Sequence record: PZ049713.1
DNA length: 59,621 nt
Direction: 5' to 3' (one strand)
DNA from: a phage
Shown here: one piece after another, positions 2,794 to 56,462 of the stretch
Layout of the letters: each line of letters starts with the position of its first letter
Numbering within the stretch: the first letter of the stretch is position 1
Notes under the pieces: model-generated
What the model was told of the DNA's origin: nothing
The model's input: only the letters and a program-made list of their open reading frames with translations
Database searches by the model: none
Translations under genes and position numbers: made by a program

Positions 2794-3510
2794 TCACCCC
2801 CTCACCGTTACGCTGGCTGCTTCGATAACTTCAGGCAGCGTGTTCAAGTCCGTCAGCGTGAAATAGCCTTCATCCCGCCAGCCGACAGTGTCGATGTGAA
2901 CGACGTTGCCGAGGATTGCTGGCGTGCGCAGCGGGGTATGGCCGACCACAAGCGCGAGCAGGTCCGGTATCCCGCTTGTGTCGACCATCTCGATTCGAGT
3001 GCGCGACCACATACAGCTGTTCTTGACCAGTTTCAGGCGCTTCGGTGATTCCGGCGCGGTCAGCTCGGCGACCGTCTGAGCCCATGTCGGAAATGGGCAG
3101 TCGGCGTGCACGATGCCAACTAGCCCTGCGTCCGTCTCCAGTTCAATGGCGATCGGCAGCTCACGGAACTGGACGGCGTACTCTGCCTGCTCGTCGCTGT
3201 TGAGCGACAGGAACCAGCCGCCGCCGTTGATGAGCCAGTTGCCCAGCTCGCAGCTGTCGTACCGGCACACGTAGTCGTCGTGGTTGCCGCGCACCGGGTG
3301 GAACCAGGGCTTTGCCAGCCACTCCAGCGCCATGTCACATTCAGGGCCGCGATCAACCAGATCGCCAACCGAGAACAGACGATCGACTGCCGGGTCAAAG
3401 CCGATCCCGTCGAGCGCCTGCTGCAGCTTCGTAAAGCATCCGTGAATGTCGCCCACGGCAAAGTCACGGCCCGCCGTGTTCTTGGCGAACCGCTTGATGA
3501 GTTCGGGCAT
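2794..3510 (-). CDS. Ser/Thr protein phosphatase (lambda PPase-like metallophosphoesterase), duplicate copy
   Basis: 238-aa translation identical to 11563-12279. Motifs GDIHG, GDLVDRG, GNHD. Confidence 0.85.
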   Translation of the reverse strand: MPELIKRFAKNTAGRDFAVGDIHGCFTKLQQALDGIGFDPAVDRLFSVGDLVDRGPECDMALEWLAKPWFHPVRGNHDDYVCRYDSCELGNWLINGGGWFLSLNSDEQAEYAVQFRELPIAIELETDAGLVGIVHADCPFPTWAQTVAELTAPESPKRLKLVKNSCMWSRTRIEMVDTSGIPDLLALVVGHTPLRTPAILGNVVHIDTVGWRDEGYFTLTDLNTLPEVIEAASVTVRG

Positions 3511-8092: not shown

Positions 8093-8367
8093 GCTGCATC
8101 GTGACGCTCTATTCAATCGACAACCGAGTGTCGCGGCCAGTAGTTCGCGGCACTGAGCCTCGGCGCCCTTCCGACTGGAACGCCAGCGCGTGGTTCGTGC
8201 TGCCCAACGGCGAGAAGCACACCCACAGCGCGATGGCCCGTGGTGAAACAGTCACTGGCCTAGTCGCCTACATGGGCGCCCTGATCGACAGCCTGATAGC
8301 TGACCACGGCAACCAAGTAGCCAGCGCCGGCTGGACGGCCACAACGCACGGGAGACGGAAGAAATGA
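8089..8367 (+). CDS. Hypothetical early protein (92 aa)
   Basis: The ATG at 8089 overlaps the upstream stop, and the stop overlaps the next start at 8364. Confidence 0.7.
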   Translation: MSCIVTLYSIDNRVSRPVVRGTEPRRPSDWNASAWFVLPNGEKHTHSAMARGETVTGLVAYMGALIDSLIADHGNQVASAGWTATTHGRRKK

Positions 8368-9011
8368 GCCCACTGGCCGGCAGGAGGCGCACGGAATACC
8401 GGCACTGGACGCCGGCAGAGGACGCAACACTGGCAGAACTGTATGCCACCAAGCCCATCACCGAGATAGCAGCCTTGATGGGGCGCGGCACTGGCTCGAT
8501 TCACAATCGCGTGTCGAAACTCGGACTGACGCGACCGGATGAGTTCAAGGAAATCACAGGCTGCGGCAGGTTCAAGCCTGGCCACCAGACATGGAACTCT
8601 GGCCGCAAAGGATGGCAGGCAGGAGGCCGGGCCAAGGACACGCAGTTCAAGCTGGGTCACCGACCATCGAACACCTGGCGCCCCATCGGAGCGGAGCGCA
8701 CCGACAAGGGCGGCATCCTCTACCGCAAGGTGGCGGACACCGGCAACAAGCGCACTGACTGGCGCCCGGTCCACGTGATGTTGTGGGAAGAGCACAGCGG
8801 CCCAGTGCCGGCTGGGCACTTCCTCGTCTTCAAGGATCGCAACCCCGCCAACATCTCAATCGACAACCTCGAGCTAGTCACCCGCGCAGAGAACATGCGC
8901 CGCAACTCAATCGAACGCTATCCGCCCGAGTATCGCCAGGCAGCCATAACGCTCGGCTGGTTCAAGCGGAAGCTCAACAAACTGGAGCAGCACCATGAAC
9001 AACCTCAGTGA
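8364..9011 (+). CDS. HNH_3-type homing endonuclease-like protein
   Basis: 215 aa. C-terminal ...NPANISIDNLELVTRAENMRRN is typical of HNH_3 phage endonucleases. N-terminal HTH-like ITEIAALMGRGTGSIHNRVSKLG. Confidence 0.75.
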   Translation: MSPLAGRRRTEYRHWTPAEDATLAELYATKPITEIAALMGRGTGSIHNRVSKLGLTRPDEFKEITGCGRFKPGHQTWNSGRKGWQAGGRAKDTQFKLGHRPSNTWRPIGAERTDKGGILYRKVADTGNKRTDWRPVHVMLWEEHSGPVPAGHFLVFKDRNPANISIDNLELVTRAENMRRNSIERYPPEYRQAAITLGWFKRKLNKLEQHHEQPQ

Positions 9012-31203: not shown

Positions 31204-32184
31204 TCAGCCATCATAGGCCGGCATGGCTATCGGCGCCAAGATGGGCAGGTGCCTCCACGACTTCCCGATGACGATGCCGCGAATGACGGACCTATGCTTC
31301 CCGTAGTCGCGCGCAATCTGAACCAAGGGCTCACCCCTCTGCGCTCTCCGCCTGATGTCCATGATCTCAGCTTCTGTGAAGGCCGCGTTGTAGACCTTTT
31401 CGCCACGGTGGTTTATTGGCGGGGTATCGCCTAGCGGGAGGTGCCTCCATGTTTCGCCGCTAATAATCTTGCTTACAGCACTCCTGCTCACCCCGTACAT
31501 CTCGGCAATCTTTGCAGCGCTATTGCCGGCCGCCCGCAGACGCCTTATCTCCAGAACCTTTTGATCATTCAGCTTGGCCGATGAGATGTGCTCGCCCTGC
31601 GCGGTCCCCTCTGTCCGCCTTTGCTCCCAGTTGGCACGGCCAGCTATGGAGCTTATAGCTGACCTCTTGGCGTCGGATATCGCCATGCGCCCTCGGCGCG
31701 CCCTTTCGCTGCGCACCGCCGGGCCTACCATCATGCGGGCTTCGTGCTGCGCGTCAGTCCATGGAACATCTTTCTTCACAGCAGACATGCGAGCGCGGTA
31801 CTCATCGCAGCTCCACAGCCTCTGCACTGCCGACCTTATTCGGTCTCTGAGCTCTGGCGGAGCATCCAGCATCCCTTCGCCGCCCGCTGTGTGATTGACC
31901 AGATTGGCGCCGCCGGCCTTGAGCTTTGCTATCCAGTAGCGCTCAGATTCGTTCCATGTGGCGTCTCGCTGCAAGACTCTCACGCAGGCCTCATCGCCCC
32001 GCGCTATAACTGACCGGACCCAGTAGTCGCGGTGGGTTGGCCTGCTGGTTGACCCTGAGCGGGTTACGTGCTGGCGCAGCCGTCGCTCCACGGAGACCAC
32101 GGTCTGCCCGACATAGCGCATCAGTCCGTCAGATTTTGCATATAGCGCGTATACCGTGCACGTGCGAGAATTGGCGTCAGCCAT
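31204..32184 (-). CDS. GIY-YIG homing endonuclease-like protein with two HTH repeats
   Basis: N-terminal VYALYAKSDGLMRYVGQT..RRLRQH (GIY-YIG). Duplicated C-terminal modules end in ...SGETWRHLP and ...IGKSWRHLP. Confidence 0.75.
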   Translation of the reverse strand: MADANSRTCTVYALYAKSDGLMRYVGQTVVSVERRLRQHVTRSGSTSRPTHRDYWVRSVIARGDEACVRVLQRDATWNESERYWIAKLKAGGANLVNHTAGGEGMLDAPPELRDRIRSAVQRLWSCDEYRARMSAVKKDVPWTDAQHEARMMVGPAVRSERARRGRMAISDAKRSAISSIAGRANWEQRRTEGTAQGEHISSAKLNDQKVLEIRRLRAAGNSAAKIAEMYGVSRSAVSKIISGETWRHLPLGDTPPINHRGEKVYNAAFTEAEIMDIRRRAQRGEPLVQIARDYGKHRSVIRGIVIGKSWRHLPILAPIAMPAYDG

Positions 32185-32263
32185 GGCCGTGACTCCTTAA
32201 CAGTCAGGTTGTGGTTAGAGCCCGCACGGTGTTGGTAGCACCTGCGGGCTCGCTTATTCTAGC

Positions 32264-33349: not shown

Positions 33350-34692
33350 TACATACCTCCAAGGCCCGGCCCCTGCTCCTGAATCAGCTCAAGCTCAGCC
33401 AGCCAGTCGCGCTCAGGCAGCTTCCCGGTCGAGATGTAGCGCCAGAACGAGTCATGGCTAACGATGCCGGCCTGCGCCGCGGTGAGCAGCTGAGCCGCAA
33501 TCTGAGGATCAACGCCGGCGGAGGAAAAGTCAGGCTTAACAGCGAATCGCAGGTCACCGCTGGTAGCGACGATCTCAGCCGCATAGCGCAGGCACTGCTC
33601 GATAGCCTCTGCAACGGTGATAACAATCGTGTAGAGCGTGCTGTGCTGATCGCTTTGACGCGCCAGTCGCGCCTCGCCGGACTCGGTGCCACCGAGATCC
33701 ACGACGCGCGCCCCAGCCTCAAGCGCTGCATTGCGCTGCTGCTCCATCAGGCGCTCATTGATCGCGCTGCCAGCCCCGCTCGGCTCCAGATAGAACGCAT
33801 TTCCGCCAGTAGGCAGGCACCACGCAGCGGACGGCCCAGTGACGCGCAGGTCTTGATCATCATCCAGTCCAACCACAACAGGCTGCGCATGACAGGTAGC
33901 GTGCGCATTGCTGAACAGGTCGGCGCTGAGCTGGTAGCTCTTGAGCGCGGCCTTGGCCATGGTCAGCAGCGGGATCTCGTCAACGTCAGCGGCATTGTCG
34001 GTCGAACCGGCAATCACCATCGGGATGTAGCGGATAGCGCCGGCTACGCCACGAGCTGACTGCGGCTCCTCAATGGCAGCCCCCTTGTCGTCGAAAAGCT
34101 GCGAGGCATACGCCCCATCTTCCAGGCTCAGCACGCGGTAAACCGTGTCGACTTCATGGGCGAACCGATCATCACCCTTGCGGCGATCTTCCTGCAGGAC
34201 GACCAATGCCAAGTCCTGCCGGCCGCGCTGGTCGCTGAGCCCCCAATTGATGAGACTGAGCGCTGGATATAGCGTGATGTACGGGGCGCCGTCTGAGTCG
34301 ACGTCCACGAGCAGGCCAGCCCGTCCGAACAGAATCACATCGCGACAGGCGCGCATGAAGAGCTGACGCAGGCCGAAACCATCAGCGGTCGCGTCATCTT
34401 CCATCCGAGCGATACCAGCCGGCAGCGTGATCTCAGGCTGCAGGCGGGACACCATGCCGATCATGCTACGCAGCGCGTCCTTTACCCAATGCGGGTATTG
34501 GGCACGGAGCGTGTAGGCTTCGTACAGGTATGAGTTGGTCGGGTCGTCCTTCTCAGCTTCGACCATGCCGGCCGGCTTCGGCAGATTCGCCGGGTTCGCC
34601 TTTACGGCAGACTCGCCTTTTACCGCTTCGGCCATTATCAGCCAGTCGGCCAGGTGTGCCGTGTAGTCTGGATGACGGCTTGATACGGGCAT
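33349..34692 (-). CDS. Portal protein
   Basis: 447 aa from the ATG at 34692 (TAATG overlap with the terminase stop). Synteny TerL-portal-MuF. Confidence 0.85.
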   Translation of the reverse strand: MPVSSRHPDYTAHLADWLIMAEAVKGESAVKANPANLPKPAGMVEAEKDDPTNSYLYEAYTLRAQYPHWVKDALRSMIGMVSRLQPEITLPAGIARMEDDATADGFGLRQLFMRACRDVILFGRAGLLVDVDSDGAPYITLYPALSLINWGLSDQRGRQDLALVVLQEDRRKGDDRFAHEVDTVYRVLSLEDGAYASQLFDDKGAAIEEPQSARGVAGAIRYIPMVIAGSTDNAADVDEIPLLTMAKAALKSYQLSADLFSNAHATCHAQPVVVGLDDDQDLRVTGPSAAWCLPTGGNAFYLEPSGAGSAINERLMEQQRNAALEAGARVVDLGGTESGEARLARQSDQHSTLYTIVITVAEAIEQCLRYAAEIVATSGDLRFAVKPDFSSAGVDPQIAAQLLTAAQAGIVSHDSFWRYISTGKLPERDWLAELELIQEQGPGLGGM

Positions 34693-35978
34693 TATGTGAG
34701 TCCTCGGATGCGGCGGGTGCCCGCTGCGCGCTTGATGATCGGGAAGCGGTGAACGACGAAGTAGCCGAAGGCATCGGCCGGGTCTTCCGTGCCGTCCTTG
34801 TTGGGCTCTCCGTGTTCGTTGTATGCCTGCTGCTCGAGCACCTGGGTGGTGACCGGGCATTTGTCGGTATTGACCTTCAGCCGGCGCACGCCCTCGCCAT
34901 TGAGGAACATGGCGTTAACGGCCAGAACGCGGTCACGAACCATTGGGTTAGCCGGGTTGACGCGAACCGTGAAGCCGGCCTGCTTGAGCAGGCTGTGATC
35001 CGACTCGCTGCCGTTGACGCTCTTGCGGTTCTTGCCGCTGGCGTCGGGGTAGACGGTGATCTTGTGGCCGGGGAATCGCTCCAGTAGCGCAGCGATCATT
35101 GCAGGCGTGTCGAACAGGCTGGTCAACTCATCCAGTTGCCGCGGCTCACCATCACGAATGACGAACACGCAGGCCGCCATCCGATTGATGTTGAAGTCCA
35201 TACCTACATGCAGCTCTTCACCCGGGCGAATCGTCTCGTCGGTGTGATTCAGGCGCCGGCAGAAGTTCGGATAGACCGATCCGCTCACTAGGTTGACGAA
35301 CTGGCCGTCAATGTAGGCGTCGACCAGGTTGGCCGGGTACGACTCGCGCAGCGAAGGGATGTAGTCCTTCGGCAGGTTCTTGGCGTTCTGCCGCGTGCTG
35401 GCATGGACGATGCCATACAGCGGGCGCTGGCTCGGATTGGCGGCCAGCTCCTTGACGAACTTGCGATATACCCAGTTGAACCCCTCCGGCGTGGTCGTCA
35501 CGTCGATGGTGTTCTCTCCGCGCGTCGGCCAGACAGTCGACATACGGGCGATGATCTTTTTCCAGGCGCTGTCAGCCTTCTTGATCGGCATGCAGTCGAT
35601 CTCGTCGACCAAGGCGTGCGCAATGTTGAAGCCGACGATGCGGCCAGGGTGCTCCATGCTCTTGCAGACGATCGTCGACAGGCAGCGGCCTTTCGAGTCG
35701 CGCAGATGCACCCGCTTGTTGCTCGGCACGATGTCAGCGAACAGCCCGAAGGCCTCGGCAACGCCCGGTATCGTGTCGTAGAAGATGTCCGCGATCTGCG
35801 GATAGGTAGGCGCGAAGTAGCCCTGCGGAATGCCGGGGTGCTCCAGCGCGTTGATACACAGCCGCACGCAGCCTACGAACGTCTTGCCGCTTCGATACCC
35901 GCCGACGAACGCTGAGAACTTCTTCGGGTGGCTGATAAACTCGAACTGCGGCTTATTCAGCTTCAGGGTCGCTTGCAT
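34692..35978 (-). CDS. terL: Terminase large subunit
   Basis: Walker A GGYRSGKT. 428 aa. Nuclease-domain acidic residues near the C-terminus. Confidence 0.9.
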   Translation of the reverse strand: MQATLKLNKPQFEFISHPKKFSAFVGGYRSGKTFVGCVRLCINALEHPGIPQGYFAPTYPQIADIFYDTIPGVAEAFGLFADIVPSNKRVHLRDSKGRCLSTIVCKSMEHPGRIVGFNIAHALVDEIDCMPIKKADSAWKKIIARMSTVWPTRGENTIDVTTTPEGFNWVYRKFVKELAANPSQRPLYGIVHASTRQNAKNLPKDYIPSLRESYPANLVDAYIDGQFVNLVSGSVYPNFCRRLNHTDETIRPGEELHVGMDFNINRMAACVFVIRDGEPRQLDELTSLFDTPAMIAALLERFPGHKITVYPDASGKNRKSVNGSESDHSLLKQAGFTVRVNPANPMVRDRVLAVNAMFLNGEGVRRLKVNTDKCPVTTQVLEQQAYNEHGEPNKDGTEDPADAFGYFVVHRFPIIKRAAGTRRIRGLT

Positions 35979-36426
35979 CTTCCACCCCGATGATGACTTG
36001 CTTCGGCTCAGGCAAGCCCTGATTCGGGTCTTCCAGTTCGCGGCGCAGCTTCTCGTTGGTCAGACGCTTGGTGTCGAGCTCTTCGCGCGTCTTGGTCAGC
36101 GACTCGATGCGCGCCAAGTAGCGGTCAGCCAGCAGGTCGTAGCCGTCCGCCTTCGCCATCAGCACGCGATTCAGCAGAACCTTCGTCAGCCGAAGCTCTT
36201 GGTCGATCTGGTCAATCTCGGCAGCATGGAAGTCGGCCTGCTCTTCATCCGTCAGGTACTTGCTATAAATCGATCCAGGCTTGGCGGCATGCCTGTTGCC
36301 GTACTGCCTTGCAGGCTCTTTCGGCCCCGTGCTTTTACCGCCATGAAGGGAGCAGCGGCTTTTCCCCGCAACAGCATCTCTTTGGCATTCCCCGCCCGCA
36401 CGGGTACGAGCCCAGCACTTAGGCAT
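35953..36426 (-). CDS. Terminase small subunit-like protein
   Basis: 157 aa. N-terminal Cys knuckle CWARTRAGGECQRDAVAGKSRCSLHGG plus a coiled coil. Overlaps the TerL start. Confidence 0.6.
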   Translation of the reverse strand: MPKCWARTRAGGECQRDAVAGKSRCSLHGGKSTGPKEPARQYGNRHAAKPGSIYSKYLTDEEQADFHAAEIDQIDQELRLTKVLLNRVLMAKADGYDLLADRYLARIESLTKTREELDTKRLTNEKLRRELEDPNQGLPEPKQVIIGVEDASDPEAE

Positions 36427-36470: not shown

Positions 36471-37205
36471 TCACATTAGAAGCGTGAACTGCCCATCCCA
36501 CGAATCGGACTTCTTTAGGTTCAGCTTGGCCCACATGGGGCGCAGGTTGTTTAGGCTGTTTGCAGCTTTTAGCTGCACGGGGTCAGTCAGATCAAAGGAT
36601 GACAGCGGTCTAATGTGGTCGATATGCCACTTATCCCTGTTGTGCCAGCCCATTCCACTATGGAATAGCGCTTCAAGGTGCTGGGCAAGGTCAGAGGCTG
36701 AATAGCCTAGGCATTCGGCAGTAACGTCTTCTTTCGCCTTCCCAACAAGCTCCAAGCAGCGCCTTATCATGCATCTTGATGCCTCTGCCGCCATCCCTTG
36801 CGGCGTCGATCTTCGACGCTTGCCTCTAATTGAGATTGACACTCTGCCCTTTTCAGACTTGGCATACTCAGCCTTGCGCTGGCGATACTCTTTAGTTTTG
36901 CGTTTGGCGCGAATCTTCTCTTGGAATTCAGGAGAGTAGTATTTCCTCCTAAGGCGCTCTTTTGCTTGTGGCGTAGCGTTTCTGGACTTCGCCCTTGCGC
37001 TACGCTTCGCCCGGTACTCCTCAGACTCTTCGCGTCTTGCTGCTCGCTCTCTCTCGCACTCTAGACAGTGCCCGGTTGCAGAAGACCTTTCCGAGTAATG
37101 CTCTCTGCGGCACGGGATGCCCGTAAAGTATTTGCTGAGCCCGACCTCTTTCGCTACTGAGCGCGAGACAATATGAATGCACGCGGATAGACTTGCGTCA
37201 GTCAT
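36471..37205 (-). CDS. HNH endonuclease with one N-terminal Zn-ribbon repeat (terminase-associated position)
   Basis: YFTGIPCRREHYSERSSATGHCLEC repeat. C-terminal WHIDHIRPLSSF...NNLRPMWAKLNLKK HNH motif. Confidence 0.8.
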   Translation of the reverse strand: MTDASLSACIHIVSRSVAKEVGLSKYFTGIPCRREHYSERSSATGHCLECERERAARREESEEYRAKRSARAKSRNATPQAKERLRRKYYSPEFQEKIRAKRKTKEYRQRKAEYAKSEKGRVSISIRGKRRRSTPQGMAAEASRCMIRRCLELVGKAKEDVTAECLGYSASDLAQHLEALFHSGMGWHNRDKWHIDHIRPLSSFDLTDPVQLKAANSLNNLRPMWAKLNLKKSDSWDGQFTLLM

Positions 37206-37294
37206 TGCCGTGATCCTCGACCGATCAGGTGGTGGCTAGAAGCCCGGAAGTGTTAGCGCACTCCGGGCTTCGTCATTATAGCGCTTCGCTTAAT

Positions 37295-37480
37295 CTATTT
37301 CCCCACCATTTCCATCCACTCCTCCACGATCCGCTGCAACACGGGCTCGGTCAGGATGCTGGATGGCTGCCTTCCGGCTATTACGTCGCGAAGGAGGCTG
37401 TGCGGTATCTGGTGCACTGCGTCAGACGCATCGATGATGACGTGCGGCTGCCTGTCGGCTAGATCGACGACGTTTTGCAT
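37295..37480 (-). CDS. Hypothetical protein (61 aa)
   Basis: ORF co-oriented with the late genes. No recognisable motif. Confidence 0.4.
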   Translation of the reverse strand: MQNVVDLADRQPHVIIDASDAVHQIPHSLLRDVIAGRQPSSILTEPVLQRIVEEWMEMVGK

Positions 37481-37579
37481 GGGCGCGCTCTCGGTTTACT
37501 GCCAACCACACCTCTTTCCCGATCATCACAGCGACACAGGCTGCGATGTATAGGAACAGGATGGTGGCGTGCAGGCGTT

Positions 37580-37795
37580 TCACTTCGGCTCACCAGTCAC
37601 CTTCGGCTGCGACACCACCCGGGCGACAGCCATAGCCACGCCGAGAACCATGTTCACGCTGGCCCATGCGACGGGGCTGATGTGGCCCTCGAACGCTACC
37701 CATGCACCGGCTGCGGCGTTGAGCACTGCGGTCAGGATGGCGAGCTGCACACTGGTCAGACGCCAGCACTTGCGCCATTCAGGAATCAGGTTCAT
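37580..37795 (-). CDS. Holin-like two-TM protein (71 aa)
   Basis: Two hydrophobic helices (LAILTAVLNAAAGAWVAF; VNMVLGVAMAVARVV) and a charged C-terminus. Start overlaps the upstream stop. Confidence 0.55.
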   Translation of the reverse strand: MNLIPEWRKCWRLTSVQLAILTAVLNAAAGAWVAFEGHISPVAWASVNMVLGVAMAVARVVSQPKVTGEPK

Positions 37796-38106
37796 GAGCC
37801 GAACCCCTTAGCCACGAACGGCCATAGCTTGTCGAAAACTGCCACCATCACCACGCCGGCGCCAATCCCATAGGTGAGCTTGTTGCTCAGTGTGTCCACC
37901 TTCCCGGCTACCTCGTCCTGGCTCTCTCCGATTGCGGTGAGCTGGCGGGTCATGTGCTCGAACTGCTGCTCGAGCTTGGTGAGGCGGTTGGGTGACTGGG
38001 CGTGGTCGCGGTCGAATCTGTCTAGGCGGTGCCGGGTTACGGCTGCCTCTTGCTCCAGGGCGCCGACTCGCTCATGCACTGTCCTGCCCTCATGGCTGTC
38101 GGTCAT
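37792..38106 (-). CDS. Membrane-anchored coiled-coil protein (holin/antiholin candidate)
   Basis: 104 aa. Coiled-coil N-terminal part and C-terminal TM YGIGAGVVMVAVFDKLWPFV. Confidence 0.5.
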   Translation of the reverse strand: MTDSHEGRTVHERVGALEQEAAVTRHRLDRFDRDHAQSPNRLTKLEQQFEHMTRQLTAIGESQDEVAGKVDTLSNKLTYGIGAGVVMVAVFDKLWPFVAKGFGS

Positions 38107-38213
38107 AGTGGAGTCTCGTTGGTGTTTGGTCCGGCCTCACATGCGCGTGCGATCCGCTCGGGGCAAGGAGGCAGGCATGGGGCCGGAATAGGGTTTAGGC
38201 GCGTGCGCCTGAA

Positions 38214-38462
38214 TCAGTCAGCTGGGGAAATGTCCACGTAGTAGGCTTTCCCCAGCTCAAGCTTGTTAGCCACCTCAGTGACCATGCCTGCCCGGAACTC
38301 ACCGTAAGGGGTCAGCCTGCCGAACACAGCGTTTTCATCTTCTTCCGTCCCGGTTACGCCGCTCGCATATACCGCGCCGAACCGAACGAGCGACATGCCT
38401 TCGGTGTGCTGGTTAAGCGAGATTTCGTGACAGATCATCTTGCAGCGAATGCGATGGGTCAT
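38214..38462 (-). CDS. Hypothetical protein (82 aa), first gene of the late region
   Basis: First ORF after the terminator-rich leader. No recognisable motif. Confidence 0.55.
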   Translation of the reverse strand: MTHRIRCKMICHEISLNQHTEGMSLVRFGAVYASGVTGTEEDENAVFGRLTPYGEFRAGMVTEVANKLELGKAYYVDISPAD

Positions 38463-38513
38463 CTTGTGGTCCTTTGGTTGGTGCAGGATGGCCTATCAGT
38501 CTTTCGCCTGCTG

Positions 38514-38543
38514 AAACGAAGAAAGCCCCGCACTTGGCGAGGC
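38514..38543 (-). terminator. Intrinsic terminator (GCCTCGC..GCGGGGC family), late leader, distal
   Basis: Minus strand gcctcgc-caagt-gcggggc followed by tttcttcgttt. Confidence 0.65.
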
Positions 38544-38759
38544 CGAAAGATGTAGATCCCGATTCCCCGCACGTCTACGGGGCGATACCTGTTATCAGGT
38601 CGCGCAGTGTGCTGCGTGTGGCGCGTAGCCGATCGCAAGCAGGCCGGGGATTTGATGCGCTGTATTGGATGACGCGAGTATTAGCAGCGCTTGCCGTCGC
38701 ACGGCGTGGTGTTTGATGGGCGCAGGATGGCGAGGCCTTCGTCAGCCAGGTTCCGCCCG

Positions 38760-38790
38760 AAACGAAAAAGCCCCGACCGAAGTCAGGGCT
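38760..38790 (-). terminator. Strong intrinsic terminator in the late leader, proximal
   Basis: Minus strand agccctgac-ttcg-gtcggggct (9-bp stem, TTCG loop) followed by ttttcgttt. Confidence 0.75.
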
Positions 38791-39035
38791 CTTGAAGTTG
38801 TCCAAGGGGACTCTCCCCCTTGAGGCCACACCACTTTCTACTTGCGCTGATCAGACGCTTTCGCAGCAGGTGTCGCTGTATGCCGCGCCCGTAACGACAT
38901 TGGACCGGGACGATTCGCGACTCTCGGCCATCTCAACGCGAGAAATGACCAAGATAGGCATAGGATGGCTCATTGGCTCACAGGATGCAATAGCTGATTT
39001 GCACAAATCTGCGCTTTTTTGAGCAAATCTGCTGT

Positions 39036-39581
39036 TTATGCCGCTTGCTCAGCAATCAACCCCTCATTACCGAGGATCTCCTGCGCCTCAACCAGCGCTT
39101 GATCCACTTGGCGCTCCAGGTCACGGCGAATGTCCCGGCGCCACCGCTCCAGTGTCTTTTGCGGGCGGCCGTCTTCGTCCCAGCGGTCAAGCTCATACCA
39201 TGCGGCCGGCAATACGCTCGTGCTTCGCTTCCCTTCCGCGCCGGGCAGCTTCGGGAATGCCCAGGTGGCTACGGCGCACTGGATGAACCGGCCAGGTGCT
39301 GGCGACTTCACCGATCCGGCCAGCGCCATCATCGCATCGTGCTTGCGCTCCAGATGGGTGCTGTACTTGGCGACGAGCGCCAGCCACAGACCAACCGGCA
39401 GCGCCTTGTGCAGGCGACCATGGACCCAGCAGTCGGTTAAGAATGCCTCTTCCTTGCCGCAGATCGCCCCAGGCACTCGCTGGTCTTGCACCTTGGGGTC
39501 AAAGTCCACGCCGCCAGCGCTATTGATCGTCTCCGCAGCCAGAGCCCGGACTACTGCTGATACAACTGATGGGTAGGTCAT
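39036..39581 (-). CDS. Hypothetical 181-aa protein in the position of a late-gene antiterminator (Q-like by synteny only)
   Basis: Last gene of the Nin-like block, immediately upstream of a 570-bp leader with tandem terminators. No motif recognised. Confidence 0.6.
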   Translation of the reverse strand: MTYPSVVSAVVRALAAETINSAGGVDFDPKVQDQRVPGAICGKEEAFLTDCWVHGRLHKALPVGLWLALVAKYSTHLERKHDAMMALAGSVKSPAPGRFIQCAVATWAFPKLPGAEGKRSTSVLPAAWYELDRWDEDGRPQKTLERWRRDIRRDLERQVDQALVEAQEILGNEGLIAEQAA

Positions 39582-40723
39582 CAGAACAATCTCCCAAGGG
39601 ATGCTGCGAATTCGTAAGGGTCTTTAGCGCTCTTGCGCAGGTTGCAAGGCGGGCACGCGATAACCAGATTGTCGACCACGTGCATTCCACCCTTCGATAG
39701 CGGCTGATAGTGGTCAACGTGATAGTTGTTTTCACACTTTGATTTGCACCAGTGGCAAAACTTTGGAACTGATCGCTCCCAGGCCATAATCACGGACGTA
39801 CTATCGCCACCAGCCTCTAGCTGTCTGCGCCTAGCCTTGTACGCTTTAGATATCGCCTTCCTGATCTCTGGATTCTTCTTTGCCCACTCTTTGGCTTTCT
39901 GCGCCCTTACTTCCCTGTTTTGTTCGTTGCGAATTCTCGCAAGTTGAATGATCCGATCCCTGTTTTCAGCAAGGTATTTCCGGTCGTACTCTTTTTTAAG
40001 TTCAGACCGTGAGAAAATTGCCAAGCACTCGACACATGATCCGGAGGCTGTATATTTCATGCCGCTGTGGCCCTTCGAGCACGGCCGTCCGACATACATT
40101 AAGGCGCCGCTTTCGAGCGCTATCTTTCGTGCGCTCTTGGCTATCCTGCGCTCCTTGCGACGAGCAGCTACCTCCGCCAGCCGAGACGATCGCTCTTCTG
40201 AGATTCGCTTGCGCTCTGCCTTCCCCTTCTCGTACTCCTCCAGCGTCATTCCGAACTTGGCGGCTGCCGATATAGCCTCGCATGTCCGGCAGCGATCAGT
40301 TGATACGTAGCGCTCTGCTGAATGTCCGTTAACGCACGGCAATCCGATGCTGTAGAACATCAGCCCGGCATCCATAGCAGCTTGCCGGAGAGAAGCGCGC
40401 CGTTCCCTCTCAGCTTTCCGCACGGCCAGCCCTGGATCTCGCTTCAGCCGTCGCGACATTTTCTTCTCTGCGCACAAAGGGTCAGAGTCACGCCGCAGCT
40501 TTTGCTCAGCGCGCTCGGCCTCTATGTTCGCGTGATACTTAGCTTTCCTCTTCAGCCTGGCGCACTCACAGCACGCGCCATTGATCGTGGCCCTGCTGGC
40601 GACGTGACCGGCAGGGCAAGGCTTGCCAGTGAAATAGGATTTGCTGCCGGCCTCCTTCGCCTCTTTTCGGCTGCAAGGAAGGTTCAAGTCATCTTGATCT
40701 TTGTTAGAATTCAAATCAGCCAT
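39581..40723 (-). CDS. HNH endonuclease with three Zn-ribbon repeats
   Basis: ATG at 40723 has a gggag RBS (longest ORF runs to 40816). Repeats YFTGKPCPAGH..GACCEC, FYSIGLPCVNGH..DRCRTC, MYVGRPCSKGH..GSCVEC. C-terminal CHWC..HVDHYQPLSKGG..NLVIACPPCN. Confidence 0.8.
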   Translation of the reverse strand: MADLNSNKDQDDLNLPCSRKEAKEAGSKSYFTGKPCPAGHVASRATINGACCECARLKRKAKYHANIEAERAEQKLRRDSDPLCAEKKMSRRLKRDPGLAVRKAERERRASLRQAAMDAGLMFYSIGLPCVNGHSAERYVSTDRCRTCEAISAAAKFGMTLEEYEKGKAERKRISEERSSRLAEVAARRKERRIAKSARKIALESGALMYVGRPCSKGHSGMKYTASGSCVECLAIFSRSELKKEYDRKYLAENRDRIIQLARIRNEQNREVRAQKAKEWAKKNPEIRKAISKAYKARRRQLEAGGDSTSVIMAWERSVPKFCHWCKSKCENNYHVDHYQPLSKGGMHVVDNLVIACPPCNLRKSAKDPYEFAASLGRLF

Positions 40724-40806
40724 TTGTCGCTCCCATATAGCGCTAATGGTTAGGGCCGGCAGTGTGTTCCCGCACTCTGCTGGCCCGTTCAATTCTACCA
40801 AATTAA

Positions 40807-41934
40807 TCAAGCACATAACATTTCCGGCACAACTTCGTTAACTGCTACTCGCCCATATTCCTTGTGGTAGGTAATACCTATTGCGCGGCGGTTAGAGGCA
40901 TAGCCGAGTCTGGCTGCATATGATCCGGTCGCAGTCAGCGTCGGATGCCTGCGAACTATCATTCCGTTATGCGTAGCGACCTCTTCCTTGTGGTAGTGGC
41001 CGGTGTGCGCCTCTCTGTGCTTTGTGCAGCCCCAAATCTCGGGGAAGTTCGCCGCGAAGATGCCCGGCAGGTCCGAATTGCGCGCCTTGTGGCCGTGATG
41101 AAAGCCGAGCATCGTCTTGCCGTGCTGGTAGACGTAATACGGCGTCTCGCTCATGTTCACTTTCAATCTCGGCTCGTTTTCATATAGAGCCTCGAACATA
41201 TGGCGCAACCACAGCGATCCGGCCAAGTCATGGTTGCCCTCTGCAATTACCAGATGGACTTCCTCGTGCTTTGCCAGCGCCATATCAATAATGCTGCGTA
41301 GAACTTTGATACTAACCCGCACCAACTCTGCATATATGCCAGAGACGTTGAGCGGGTGCCGATTGGTTGGCGTTACTGGCTCCAGTCCGTCAAACGTCAG
41401 GAAGTCGCCTAGCTGGTTGATGACGCAATATCTCGCCTTGGCCGATGCGTTGATCATTGCGGCAAAGCAGCCGACAAGCACGCGCTCGGCTTCTTCGAGG
41501 TTCCAGTCGGCGCCACCCTGGATGGCAGTCGCGTATTCCCCGATGTGACAGTCCGTCAGGGTGTACAGGTTGCACAGCGCGTCGTCGGTTTGGGCAGGCC
41601 CGCCCATTGGCGCCAAGCGGTCTATCTGTTCGCCCATTGCTGCGGCTGCGGCGTGCATTAGCTCTAGCTGCCGTTCGTGGTCGATGCTGGACTTGACCCA
41701 CTGCAGCTTCTGCTCGCCGTCCTTGCCGTACAGTGTCGACGTGCCTTTCAGGTGGAAGCCGTCCGGCACGCTCTTGGTCATGTCGTGCTCCGGGCTCCAC
41801 CCCTGACGAGCCAAGCGCGCCTTATGGGTGTAGACGTTGCGCTCGTGCAGCCCAAGGATCTGCGCAGCCTCTGCCACAGTGCGGCCAGTCAGCGCGGCCT
41901 TGATTTCGTCGTCTGTCGCTTTGCGTGCGGCCAT
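40807..41934 (-). CDS. HTH-containing calcineurin-like metallophosphoesterase
   Basis: N-terminal TVAEAAQILGLHERNVYTHKARLARQG. Phosphoesterase motifs LVIAEGNHD, GFHHGH, HTGHYH. Confidence 0.7.
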   Translation of the reverse strand: MAARKATDDEIKAALTGRTVAEAAQILGLHERNVYTHKARLARQGWSPEHDMTKSVPDGFHLKGTSTLYGKDGEQKLQWVKSSIDHERQLELMHAAAAAMGEQIDRLAPMGGPAQTDDALCNLYTLTDCHIGEYATAIQGGADWNLEEAERVLVGCFAAMINASAKARYCVINQLGDFLTFDGLEPVTPTNRHPLNVSGIYAELVRVSIKVLRSIIDMALAKHEEVHLVIAEGNHDLAGSLWLRHMFEALYENEPRLKVNMSETPYYVYQHGKTMLGFHHGHKARNSDLPGIFAANFPEIWGCTKHREAHTGHYHKEEVATHNGMIVRRHPTLTATGSYAARLGYASNRRAIGITYHKEYGRVAVNEVVPEMLCA

Positions 41935-54306: not shown

Positions 54307-54769
54307 CCCCCGCCTGAACCAGCCAGGCCAGACCCCCAGGTCTGCGATAACCGTACGGCGCGCGGTGCTGGTAGCGCCATGAACAAACCGCCGAGCGCAG
54401 CGGCCCTTCGGGATACCTGCGACGAGGATCAGCCGGACAGTGCCTCGATTGCAGAAAACCCCGGCAGCCATCCATGGGATTTTCCACAGCTTTGCCCGAG
54501 GGGATGGCCGAGTGACTGGCGTTACCAGTCGGCATCGGAGAGTGATCTGAATGCGCAGGCTGATGCGACGCCCATAGCGAGGCGACACGGCGGTAAAGCC
54601 ATTACGTTGTGCCGGGATCAGCTCCGGCCAGATCACTCCCCGATGCCACTGCATCACCCCTTCCCACGCCCATCCGGGCAACCGAGGTATCGACCATGAA
54701 GCACTACGGACCCATAGGGCGCCGCGAACAGCCGTGCCCGGATGACAGCGTTTCCGCGAGGATTCAACG

Positions 54770-55795: not shown

Positions 55796-55893
55796 CCATC
55801 CAACTCAAGGAGCTGGCCGGCGCTGTCGGCATCCTCATCGTAGCCCTGTTCATCGGGGCGCTGTGCCACGTTGCGCTGATAGGGGGTGTGTGA
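55792..55893 (+). CDS. Small single-TM peptide (33 aa)
   Basis: ATGA overlap upstream and TGATG overlap downstream. MTIQLKELAGAVGILIVALFIGALCHVALIGGV. Confidence 0.45.
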   Translation: MTIQLKELAGAVGILIVALFIGALCHVALIGGV

Positions 55894-56462
55894 TGGATGA
55901 CCGCGAACTGTTGGAGATGGCGGCTAAGGCCAAGCACGCCAAAGAGCGCCACGGGATGAACAAGAGCCCAGAACACCGGGCCTGGGTGAGCATGCGACAG
56001 CGCTGCAGTAATCCTAATAAGAAGGAGTTTAAGCACTACGGAGGGCGAGGTATCAAGGTCTGTCAGCGCTGGTCCTACTTCGCAAACTTCATAGCGGACA
56101 TGGGGCGCCGCCCTAGCTCGGCTCACTCCCTTGACCGAATTGATGTGAACGGAGACTACGAGCCGGGCAACGTTCGCTGGGCCACAAAACAGACACAAGC
56201 AGAGAACACGACGGTTGCACGGATACTTTCCCATGATGGCGAAGCGCTGACAGTAAGTGAGTGGGAGCGTCGGAAGTGTCTCGCTCGAGGCACGATTTGT
56301 CGGCGCCTAGCAAGTGGATGGTCAATCGCTGAAGCAATCGATACGAGGCCTGTCATTGGGCAAAAGGTTCACCCCGAACCACCAAGGGACGTTTCTCGCC
56401 AAGCTCGAGGTAGCCATGGTGAGTTCGTCCGCGCTGCAGCCGAGATCGGGAGGGCCATGTGA
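55893..56462 (+). CDS. Phage DNA-binding / homing-endonuclease-like protein (189 aa)
   Basis: SPEHRAWVSMRQRCSNPNKKEFKHYGGRGIKVCQRW...LDRIDVNGDYEPGNVRWAT is a motif shared by phage proteins usually annotated HNH/AP2-like endonuclease. Confidence 0.6.
   Translation: MDDRELLEMAAKAKHAKERHGMNKSPEHRAWVSMRQRCSNPNKKEFKHYGGRGIKVCQRWSYFANFIADMGRRPSSAHSLDRIDVNGDYEPGNVRWATKQTQAENTTVARILSHDGEALTVSEWERRKCLARGTICRRLASGWSIAEAIDTRPVIGQKVHPEPPRDVSRQARGSHGEFVRAAAEIGRAM

Follow-up and report, generated by a model that had tools for sequence, protein, structure and literature searches.

The window analysed here, the whole 59.6 kb (59,621 nucleotides (nt)) of phage record PZ049713.1, carries five nuclease-like genes, two of which, encoding proteins of 244 and 380 amino acids (aa; P1 and P2, respectively), are the subject of this study (Table 1). 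Each of the two consists of a 5′ element of ~80 nt, small N-terminal Cys/His modules joined by basic helices (a single module in P1, three in tandem in P2), and a C-terminal His-Me-finger (HNH) domain. We are fairly confident that both are free-standing mobile nuclease cassettes of the homing-endonuclease type, and probably selfish, because their nuclease domains are intact, their architecture is modular, their insertion sites are clean, their history is discordant with that of the flanking genes, and their homologs are scattered.

Table 1. Positions of the nuclease-like genes, their parts and their neighbours in the window.
Feature	Position	Strand	Remarks
HNH_3 gene	8364-9011	+	E 1e-15
GIY-YIG nuclease with helix-turn-helix, two WRHLP motifs (residues 246, 310)	31204-32184	-	GIY-YIG E 1.5e-5
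Leader/antisense-RNA locus ahead of the GIY-YIG gene	32177-32252	-	Rfam Plasmid_R1162 antisense-RNA-like, 35 bits
Large terminase TerL	34692-35978	-	Terminase_6N/6C type
Small terminase terS, HGGxSTG domain; right flank of P1 insertion	35953-36426	-	first 126 nt diverged from P1-free relatives
P1: one CHCC zinc module, basic helical linker, Cys-less HNH-like domain	36471-37205	-	PHROG 1035 E 2.6e-20
P1 catalytic domain GMxWxN..WHIDHIRPLSSFDL..NNLRPMWAKLNLKKSD	36474-36758	-	conserved residues in 49 homologs; hhalign to HNH family
Zinc module of P1, residues 10-68	37002-37178	-	core motif 37056-37121
SymR-like antisense RNA candidate over P1 ribosome-binding site and AUG	37200-37274	+	Rfam symR 37.2 bits
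Blocks similar to phage PS-1	37118-37582, 37594-38213, 39168-39566, 42541-42940		nucleotide identity 83-94%
181-aa protein, PHROG 3412; right flank of P2 insertion	39036-39581	-	ATG overlaps P2 stop (TGATG)
P2: three CHCC zinc modules spaced by long helices, canonical HNH	39581-40723	-	PF01844 E 2.3e-9
P2 HNH catalytic domain	39599-39772	-	C323, C326, D337, H338, N352, C357, C360, N361 invariant
Zinc module 3 of P2	39971-40147	-	core motif 40025-40090; module-only AlphaFold (AF2) model
Zinc module 2 of P2	40226-40402	-	core motif 40280-40345
Zinc module 1 of P2	40508-40684	-	core motif 40562-40627
SymR-like antisense RNA candidate over P2 ribosome-binding site and AUG	40718-40789	+	Rfam symR 33.4 bits
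Metallophosphoesterase (MPE), 375 aa, N-terminal helix-turn-helix, PHROG 704; left flank, apparent 'home' of P2 family	40807-41934	-	
HNH-like gene	55893-56462	+	PHROG 3377 'HNH endonuclease' E 1e-50

Profile searches recovered all five nuclease-like genes of the heavy homing-endonuclease load described in the first-pass annotation, and relatives with empty sites were found for P1 and P2 (see below). The rightmost gene had been called HNH/AP2-like; the first part of that name is upheld, by PHROG only, whereas the protein had no Pfam match and no match to AP2. The GIY-YIG gene, with its doubled WRHLP motif, is indeed flanked by the genes for the Mu-F head-morphogenesis protein and for the scaffold. 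It falls within ~1 kb of DNA that is extra relative to Pseudomonas phage PS-1, and no gene of its size occupies this position in PS-1, L007 or L008 (L numbers label the loci fetched for comparison). PS-1 has HNH_3-like genes elsewhere in the same head module, at two places (gp42 and gp52). The phage is temperate, and encodes an integrase (12471-13652).

The N-terminal module of P1 and P2 follows the pattern G-x-P-C-x3-H-x10-C-x2-C (hereafter the CHCC module). A six-frame scan of the window, with the His-to-Cys spacing allowed to range from 8 to 10, found exactly four copies, one in P1 and three in P2, including the peptides by which the module had first been noticed as unusual. All four have a common upstream helix (R-x2-A-x3-G), followed by Y-x2-G-x-P-C-x3-H and then C-x2-C. 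They align as genuine repeats and not through composition: local BLOSUM62 scores of module pairs were 69-101, as compared with 21-23±4.5 in 2000 shuffles (z 10.6-18), and the P1 module matched module 1 of P2 in BLASTP with E 6e-9. PHROG 1081 matched P1 once (1.7e-13) and P2 three times (1.2e-22). In 48 three-module homologs the ligands C36 H40 C51 C54, C130 H134 C145 C148 and C215 H219 C230 C233 were invariant or nearly so, and the distance from His to CxxC was 10 residues in 228 of 236 modules. We infer that the modules bind zinc, and they probably also bind DNA.

The module had no match in Pfam, NCBIfam or the PDB, and no significant structural neighbour was found for the module-only AF2 model, which had a predicted local distance difference test (pLDDT) score of 93.8. 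It is, nevertheless, very common while lacking a Pfam or NCBIfam model: a hidden Markov model built on it matched 21,652 cluster representatives (E≤1e-3), with 1-7 copies per protein. Among the top 142 module proteins, the nuclease partner was HNH in 36 and Endonuclease_7 in 14. CapR, DUF723 and DUF4397, the zinc domains of other phage nucleases, had no Pfam match in P1, P2 or these 142 multi-module proteins, and their ligand pattern also differs. One and the same type of HNH domain carries 0, 1, 2 or 3 modules among P2 homologs, some of which, for example that of cyanophage Pam1, have a CxxC...CxxC domain in the module's place. The proposal of a modular array of varying repeat number is thus borne out, with arrays of up to seven modules elsewhere.

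Modules may also occur alone. L017 contains a stand-alone 111-aa open reading frame (ORF; 2934-3269) in which no nuclease domain was detected; part of it shares 39% identity with PS-1 gp48 in the N-terminal module region of the latter. PHROG 1081 and PHROG 23777 are apparently families of such module-only proteins, which might act as repressors or decoys for the nucleases.

P2 ends in a canonical HNH domain, which scored 37.7 bits against PF01844 (cut-off 21.4 bits); its two Cys pairs, forming the Cys4 zinc site, and the D-H/N/N residues were all invariant in 48 homologs. An alternative in-frame ATG at 40816 would give a protein of 411 aa. The start at 40723 is supported instead, because the leader is conserved and the N-termini of homologs read MAD.... 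In the AF2 model of P2 (pLDDT 91, predicted template-modelling score 0.44), three copies of a helix - strand - Cys/His loop - strand - CxxC at helix N-terminus arrangement are predicted, with long helices between the copies and the HNH domain last. The nearest solved folds found by Foldseek were Gme HNH (4H9D, a nicking enzyme) and McrA.

The catalytic domain of P1 is less conventional. P1 had no Pfam match at E≤0.1, none of its homologs had a Pfam HNH domain, and searches of the PDB with the single sequence and with the profile gave nothing significant. In 49 homologs, D196, H197, N220, L221 and P223 were invariant, and H194, N229 and K232 nearly so; the variant in P1 reads H-x-D-H-I-x-P...N-L-x-P-x-W...N-x-x-K. 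The domain contains no cysteines, and hence no Cys4 zinc site of the HNH kind. Profiles of the P1 and P2 families were, however, aligned by hhalign with 99.2% probability (E 6e-20) over module, linker and catalytic core, and WHIDHIRPLS of P1 was paired with YHVDHYQPLS of the HNH family. Because of this alignment, P1 is classified, as judged from sequence, as a Cys-less HNH variant. The description of P1 and P2 as two HNH paralogs is therefore accurate for the N-terminal module and helical linker; in their catalytic domains, which differ, the two are not closely paralogous. L294 (1183-1908) holds a chimeric ORF in which a P1-like leader, N-terminus (MTDASLSAFLHI...) and zinc module are joined to an HNH domain of the canonical Cys4 type in place of the Cys-less domain of P1, so that domain shuffling is seen directly.

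We compared the P2 site with the 79 closest relatives of the window's MPE. In 68 of them a late-regulator-like gene follows the MPE gene directly (within ~15 nt), i.e. the P2 site is empty. Homology of the window to four P2-free relatives (L201, L228, L236 and L249) resumes exactly at 39581, the ATG of the regulator, and in the comparison with these relatives the 3′ half of the MPE gene is 65% identical, versus 89-91% for the 5′ part. The history of P2 also differs from that of its neighbour: between the window and L017, synonymous divergence (dS) was 1.57 for P2 and 0.107 for MPE, with a ratio of nonsynonymous to synonymous divergence (dN/dS) for P2 of 0.09-0.29, and a 95%-identical block stops within module 1 of P2. 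P2 is an inserted cassette, and the MPE/regulator junction is its usual home. The diverged 3′ half of the MPE gene is the likely target region of P2.

P2 might, alternatively, be no insertion at all and work with MPE as a two-nuclease DNA-processing unit. The MPE gene lies immediately upstream in ~60 of 80 P2-family loci from IMG/VR, with MPE identity down to 25-30%, cyanophage Pam1 being one such case, and the trio of MPE, P2-type HNH and 181-aa protein is present also in L015, L016/17 and L018. The dependence, however, goes one way, because MPE occurs in 2,023 phage records, as opposed to 243 with any P2-like match, and because 68 of the 79 MPE relatives have no HNH gene. As P2 in addition has its own control element (see below), and in view of the dS values, we regard such a partnership as very unlikely, and retain the reading of P2 as an insertion.

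The MPE protein has the motifs DxH, GD, GNHD and GHxH, and its homologs, from T7-like, T1-like, Vibrio, Rhodobacter and cyanophage genomes, are variously annotated as exonuclease, oxidoreductase or DNA polymerase II. The slot after MPE is taken in relatives by a PHROG 3412 gene or by one encoding 117 aa (MKSAEELLTQWG...) or 196 aa, and L007 has a Q-antiterminator-like gene at the corresponding position. The 181-aa PHROG 3412 protein of the window occupies the place of the late-gene regulator of lambdoid phages. It is followed, upstream of lysis-type genes, by ~570 base pairs (bp; 38462-39036) with no convincing minus-strand ORF, and the two may represent a late regulator with its target region. 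In L016 (ENA contig k141_221826, 1-7685), the trio of MPE, three-module HNH and 181-aa protein occurs twice, inverted, on one 88-kb contig, through either misassembly or the joining of concatemer units.

P1 lies directly upstream of the terminase genes, as had been noted, its stop codon 44 nt ahead of the terS start. Five relatives (L263, L267, L271, L279 and L281) have ~190 bp where the window holds 1013 bp; homology to the window ends at 37313-37305 (at 37503 for L267) and resumes at ~36300. Over its first 126 nt, terS cannot be aligned with P1-free relatives. P1 is thus an insertion of ~0.8 kb between a small gene and terS, and the comparison with endonuclease-free relatives reveals clean sites for both P1 and P2, neither of which is a fixed core gene. 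Relative to its ortholog in L007, P1 has a dS of 2.6 (saturated), versus 0.40-0.57 in flanking genes, and a dN/dS of 0.07; a mosaic breakpoint falls within its N-terminus.

The position of P1 had led the first-pass annotation to suggest that it is a packaging factor and not a selfish element. On such a reading P1 would be a co-factor that, like gp74 of HK97, stimulates terminase cleavage of the packaging site. Packaging HNH proteins reportedly go with a module of HK97-type terminase, portal and protease-capsid. The head module of the window is of another kind, comprising a Terminase_6N/6C TerL, a DUF4055 portal, a Mu-F protein and an SPP1 gp13-like capsid, and the HK97-type association, with its PF03354 terminase, was not found in the window. 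L018, which has a 104-aa HNH protein, TerS and a PF03354 TerL, offers a canonical packaging-type example for comparison; P1, at 244 aa and with a DNA-reading module, is not such a single domain of ~100 aa.

Presence and absence of the gene argue the same way. We examined 71 IMG/VR loci with TerL 82-99.8% identical to that of the window and with sufficient upstream sequence, looking for ORFs with the general HxDHxxP motif at most 1.9 kb upstream of TerL. No such ORF was present in 67 of the 71, a count that might overlook HNH_3-type genes, except that in five loci the gap is too small for any gene. The remaining four have a different, canonical-Cys HNH cassette, in two of them directly upstream of terS behind the leader that P1 also has (see below). 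L016 and L017, with TerS 98.8% and TerL 97% identical to those of PS-1, are without the P1-like gene that PS-1 has, and phiPSA1 (TerL 84% identical) has no P1-like gene either; the publication on phiPSA1-like phages names no packaging strategy. An HNH gene is therefore not a conserved companion of this packaging module, and the synonymous divergence of P1 is five times that of the terminase genes.

Evidence in favour of a packaging role comes from the recurrence of P1-like genes (36-73% identity), which immediately precede terS in five lineages (the window, PS-1, L007, L008-10 and L015); in the three lineages for which TerL was compared, L008-10 and L015 among them, it is only 27-29% identical to that of the window. 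Proteins of the HNH type are known to assist packaging (Kala et al. 2014, cited in PMC12967558 and PMC9611059), and packaging and homing readings need not be exclusive (Barth et al., PMC10448857). More distant P1 relatives, on the other hand, are found between TerL and portal genes, between tail sheath and tube genes, beside the major head gene, after recT/yqaJ and among replication genes. The packaging-factor reading of P1 is largely refuted by the presence/absence data, and we consider a co-factor role most improbable. Insertion at scattered sites beside essential genes matches the published behaviour of homing endonuclease genes (HEGs), including a hot spot upstream of terminase (PMC10448857; PMC2988022).

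In relatives with TerL 82-99.8% identical (L263-L342), only the C-terminal ~40 residues of TerS are kept (70-90% identical), and at least three types of its N-terminal DNA-binding part are swapped among them, which suggests modular exchange of packaging-site specificity. The window as a whole is a mosaic relative to PS-1, the similar blocks (Table 1) alternating with unrelated DNA, and its head genes resemble phiPSA1-type phages instead (TerL 81% nucleotide identity).

P1, P2 and the GIY-YIG gene are preceded by a 5′ element of the same layout, and the GIY-YIG gene, the leader of which aligns with those of P1 and P2, is a third cassette of this kind. The order of parts is TAnAAT; a GC-rich hairpin with the loop GTGC..AACAC; CTAAYCA; a small hairpin at the Shine-Dalgarno (SD) sequence; and ATG-RCT-GA. 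The stems of the main hairpin differ among the three leaders, yet stay complementary. RNAalifold applied to a MAFFT alignment of the leaders missed this hairpin, the stems being out of register, and our own scans and folds were used instead. On the sense strand, the P1 leader reads hairpin, CTAGCCA, SD hairpin, ATGACTGAC, and it is kept in PS-1, L007, L015 and L008; the P2 leader is kept in L015, L017, L022, L023 and L035.

The element is widespread and marks nuclease genes. A scan of 1.30 Mb of loci gave 21 unique copies, all immediately upstream of nuclease ORFs; extended to 2.43 Mb, the scan gave 28, and reversed-sequence controls gave none. All 15 cases of CTAACCA went with ATGGCT, and all five of CTAATCA with ATGAC, so that motif and start codon covary. 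A fixed leader pattern was found in at least 120 IMG/VR stretches, and the element stands ahead of nucleases from at least five families in viral contigs. The 80 ORFs scanned behind it included HNH_3 (25), HNH (15), NUMOD3 (9), GIY-YIG (6), AP2 (4), Endonuclease_7 (4), NUMOD4 (3) and others. The cassettes that carry it come from phages of Pseudomonas-like hosts and of cyanobacteria, and from many uncultured viruses.

We found that the element resembles the leader of E. coli symE, a gene well established to be repressed by SymR, an antisense RNA lying over its SD sequence (Kawano et al. 2007, as summarized in the review PMC3874152). The symE leader aligns directly, with the same loop (TGCGCCAACAC), TAATCACAA, SD hairpin, ATGACTGAC and reverse TAGAAT. 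In both systems a 75-77-nt antisense locus (RF01809 in E. coli) lies over SD and AUG, the loop reads TGCGC(C/T)AACAC, TAATCAC pairs with the AUGAC region, a reverse -10 hexamer TAGAAT falls in codons 5-6, and the ORF begins with MTD or MAD. The phage ORFs differ in encoding HNH or GIY-YIG nucleases and not the AbrB-fold SymE. Covariance-model matches of the phage elements to Rfam symR scored 33-44 bits, as compared with 93 for E. coli SymR, and none reached the 61-bit gathering score; every match was on the strand opposite the gene and began at the complement of AUGRCU. From these alignments we take the element to be homologous to the symE/SymR leader, and the term SymR-like suits it better than assignment to RF01809. 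The literature searched contained no link between SymR and homing endonucleases.

Several features indicate which strand the RNA would be made from. Of 153 unique leaders, 118 formed the more stable hairpin on the antisense strand (Wilcoxon p 2e-13), and G-U pairs numbered 255 on the antisense strand versus 97 on the sense strand. Among 159 leaders, 92 (58%) had an antisense -10 hexamer (TAGAAT, TAAAAT or TAGACT) at a constant position within codons 4-7, versus 3.6% of control ATG sites; in P1 it is TAGACT, 6 nt before AGTCAT, and in P2 an extended TGT-TAGAAT, 7 nt before AGCCAT. The 5′ element is thus most likely a SymR-like cis-antisense RNA, as predicted from its sequence. It is also possible that TAnAAT, which lies 8-12 nt ahead of the hairpin in 25 of 28 copies, is the cassette's own promoter and the hairpin a leader of the sense transcript, which would account for part of the conservation. 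We consider this less likely than the antisense RNA, in view of the excess of G-U pairs on the antisense strand, the alignment to symR and the -10 hexamer in reverse orientation.

A broader proposal is that the element is a portable SymR-type cis-antisense gene, a 'safety catch' shared by mobile nucleases from five or more families (HNH, HNH_3, GIY-YIG, EndoVII-like and Vsr/DUF559-like), of which symE-symR would be one chromosomal member, and that the element together with the first codons (MAD/MTD) serves as a recombination handle for swapping arrays and nuclease domains. We judge the chances for and against this proposal to be about equal.

Homology to a type I locus raises the question of whether the cassettes are type I toxin-antitoxin-like or defence modules, in which the SymR-like RNA would restrain a nuclease toxin, acting not in homing but in prophage maintenance, abortive infection or exclusion of competing phages. 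In one known case a small RNA controls a DNase toxin of a prophage (RalR/RalA, PMC4041452); the phage studied here is temperate, and both P1 and P2 are under strong purifying selection. The ORFs behind the leader, however, belong overwhelmingly to classical homing-endonuclease families and modules, and they lie between essential phage genes, as homing endonucleases do. PADLOC defence models had no match for P1, MPE or the 181-aa protein, and weak generic PtuB HNH matches for P2. A toxin or defence role, which would be compatible with homing and does not exclude it, therefore seems unlikely to be what the cassettes are for.

We propose that P1 and P2 act as homing endonucleases in the following way. 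Strung like beads, the zinc modules would read the DNA and so position the HNH domain on a target of considerable length. This target would probably lie in an allele of the adjacent gene that has no endonuclease, at the 5′ end of terS in the case of P1 and in the 3′ half of the MPE gene in that of P2. Repair of the cut genome from a cassette-bearing genome, during co-infection or by recombination with a prophage, would copy the cassette together with the adjacent flank. An antisense RNA transcribed from the reverse promoter in codons 4-7 of the nuclease gene, and covering SD and AUG, would keep the nuclease silent, for example in the lysogen.

Several observations weigh against the homing-cassette reading. 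Homing is deduced from the genomic pattern, and strong purifying selection is compatible with a domesticated gene as well as with an active homing endonuclease. The recurrence upstream of terS in lineages with distant TerL proteins is a further point, and so is the tie to MPE, which is tighter and older than would be expected of a purely selfish element, and could reflect a partnership. DNA binding by the modules is claimed from context, the module model being without a significant structural neighbour. As for the control element, the symR scores below the Rfam gathering threshold and the frequent sense-strand -10 sequence count on the same side.

Free-standing endonucleases with beads-on-a-string zinc domains, domain shuffling and seats beside essential genes have been described (PMC10448857, PMC2988022). 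A close parallel is provided by the T5orf172 HEGs of ICP1 and further phages, which are equipped with CapR, DUF723 and DUF4397 domains (Barth, Dunham & Seed 2023, PMC10448857) and likewise have variable zinc arrays strung like beads, undergo domain shuffling, sit beside essential genes and use a hot spot upstream of terminase. Their zinc domain, however, is CxxC...CxC, whereas that of P1 and P2 is C-x3-H-x10-C-x2-C with a preceding helix, and the nuclease of P1 and P2 is HNH, with a SymR-like element attached. The 'intronless homing' of the Seg and Mob endonucleases of T4 (Edgell, Gibb & Belfort 2010, PMC2988022) is similar in intergenic insertion, presence and absence among relatives, locally diverged flanks, and tight post-transcriptional control with RNA structure around the ribosome-binding site. 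In T4 that structure is a sense-strand hairpin bypassed by a late promoter, whereas the evidence for P1 and P2 favours a cis-antisense RNA; P1 and P2, moreover, belong to a temperate Pseudomonas-type phage and use other DNA-binding modules.

I-TevI and I-HmuI, with their NUMOD repeats, also combine a catalytic domain, a linker and repeated small DNA-binding modules; NUMOD1-4 are not zinc modules of the CHCC type, and in P1 and P2 the order is array first, nuclease last. HNH proteins of the HK97 gp74 type (Kala et al. 2014; Moodley et al. 2012, as cited in PMC12967558) share with P1 the HNH fold and the place directly upstream of terS. P1 differs from them in the families of terminase, portal and capsid that it accompanies, in the absence of an HNH-motif gene upstream in 94% of TerL relatives, in being twice as large, in its DNA-reading module and in lacking the Cys4 zinc site.

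The present case differs from what has been described in its CHCC module, in the HNH variant without cysteines found in P1, and in a SymR-like control element common to several nuclease families. The module is a candidate for a programmable DNA reader. HNH genes beside a terminase may be packaging factors or selfish insertions, two cases that are easily confused in annotation and that comparison of relatives separates in the present phage. Should the SymR-like RNA prove real, it would account for the tolerance of several nucleases in lysogens of temperate phages, link the control of homing endonucleases to type I toxin-antitoxin RNA, and suggest an origin of symE-symR, and the leader would provide a sequence tag for finding mobile nuclease cassettes.

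Elsewhere in the window, on the plus strand at 54390-54469, we found a match to the Rfam Proteo-phage-1 RNA (RF03044; 70.2 bits versus a gathering score of 42 bits, E 1e-10), a known, uncharacterised small-RNA motif of phages.

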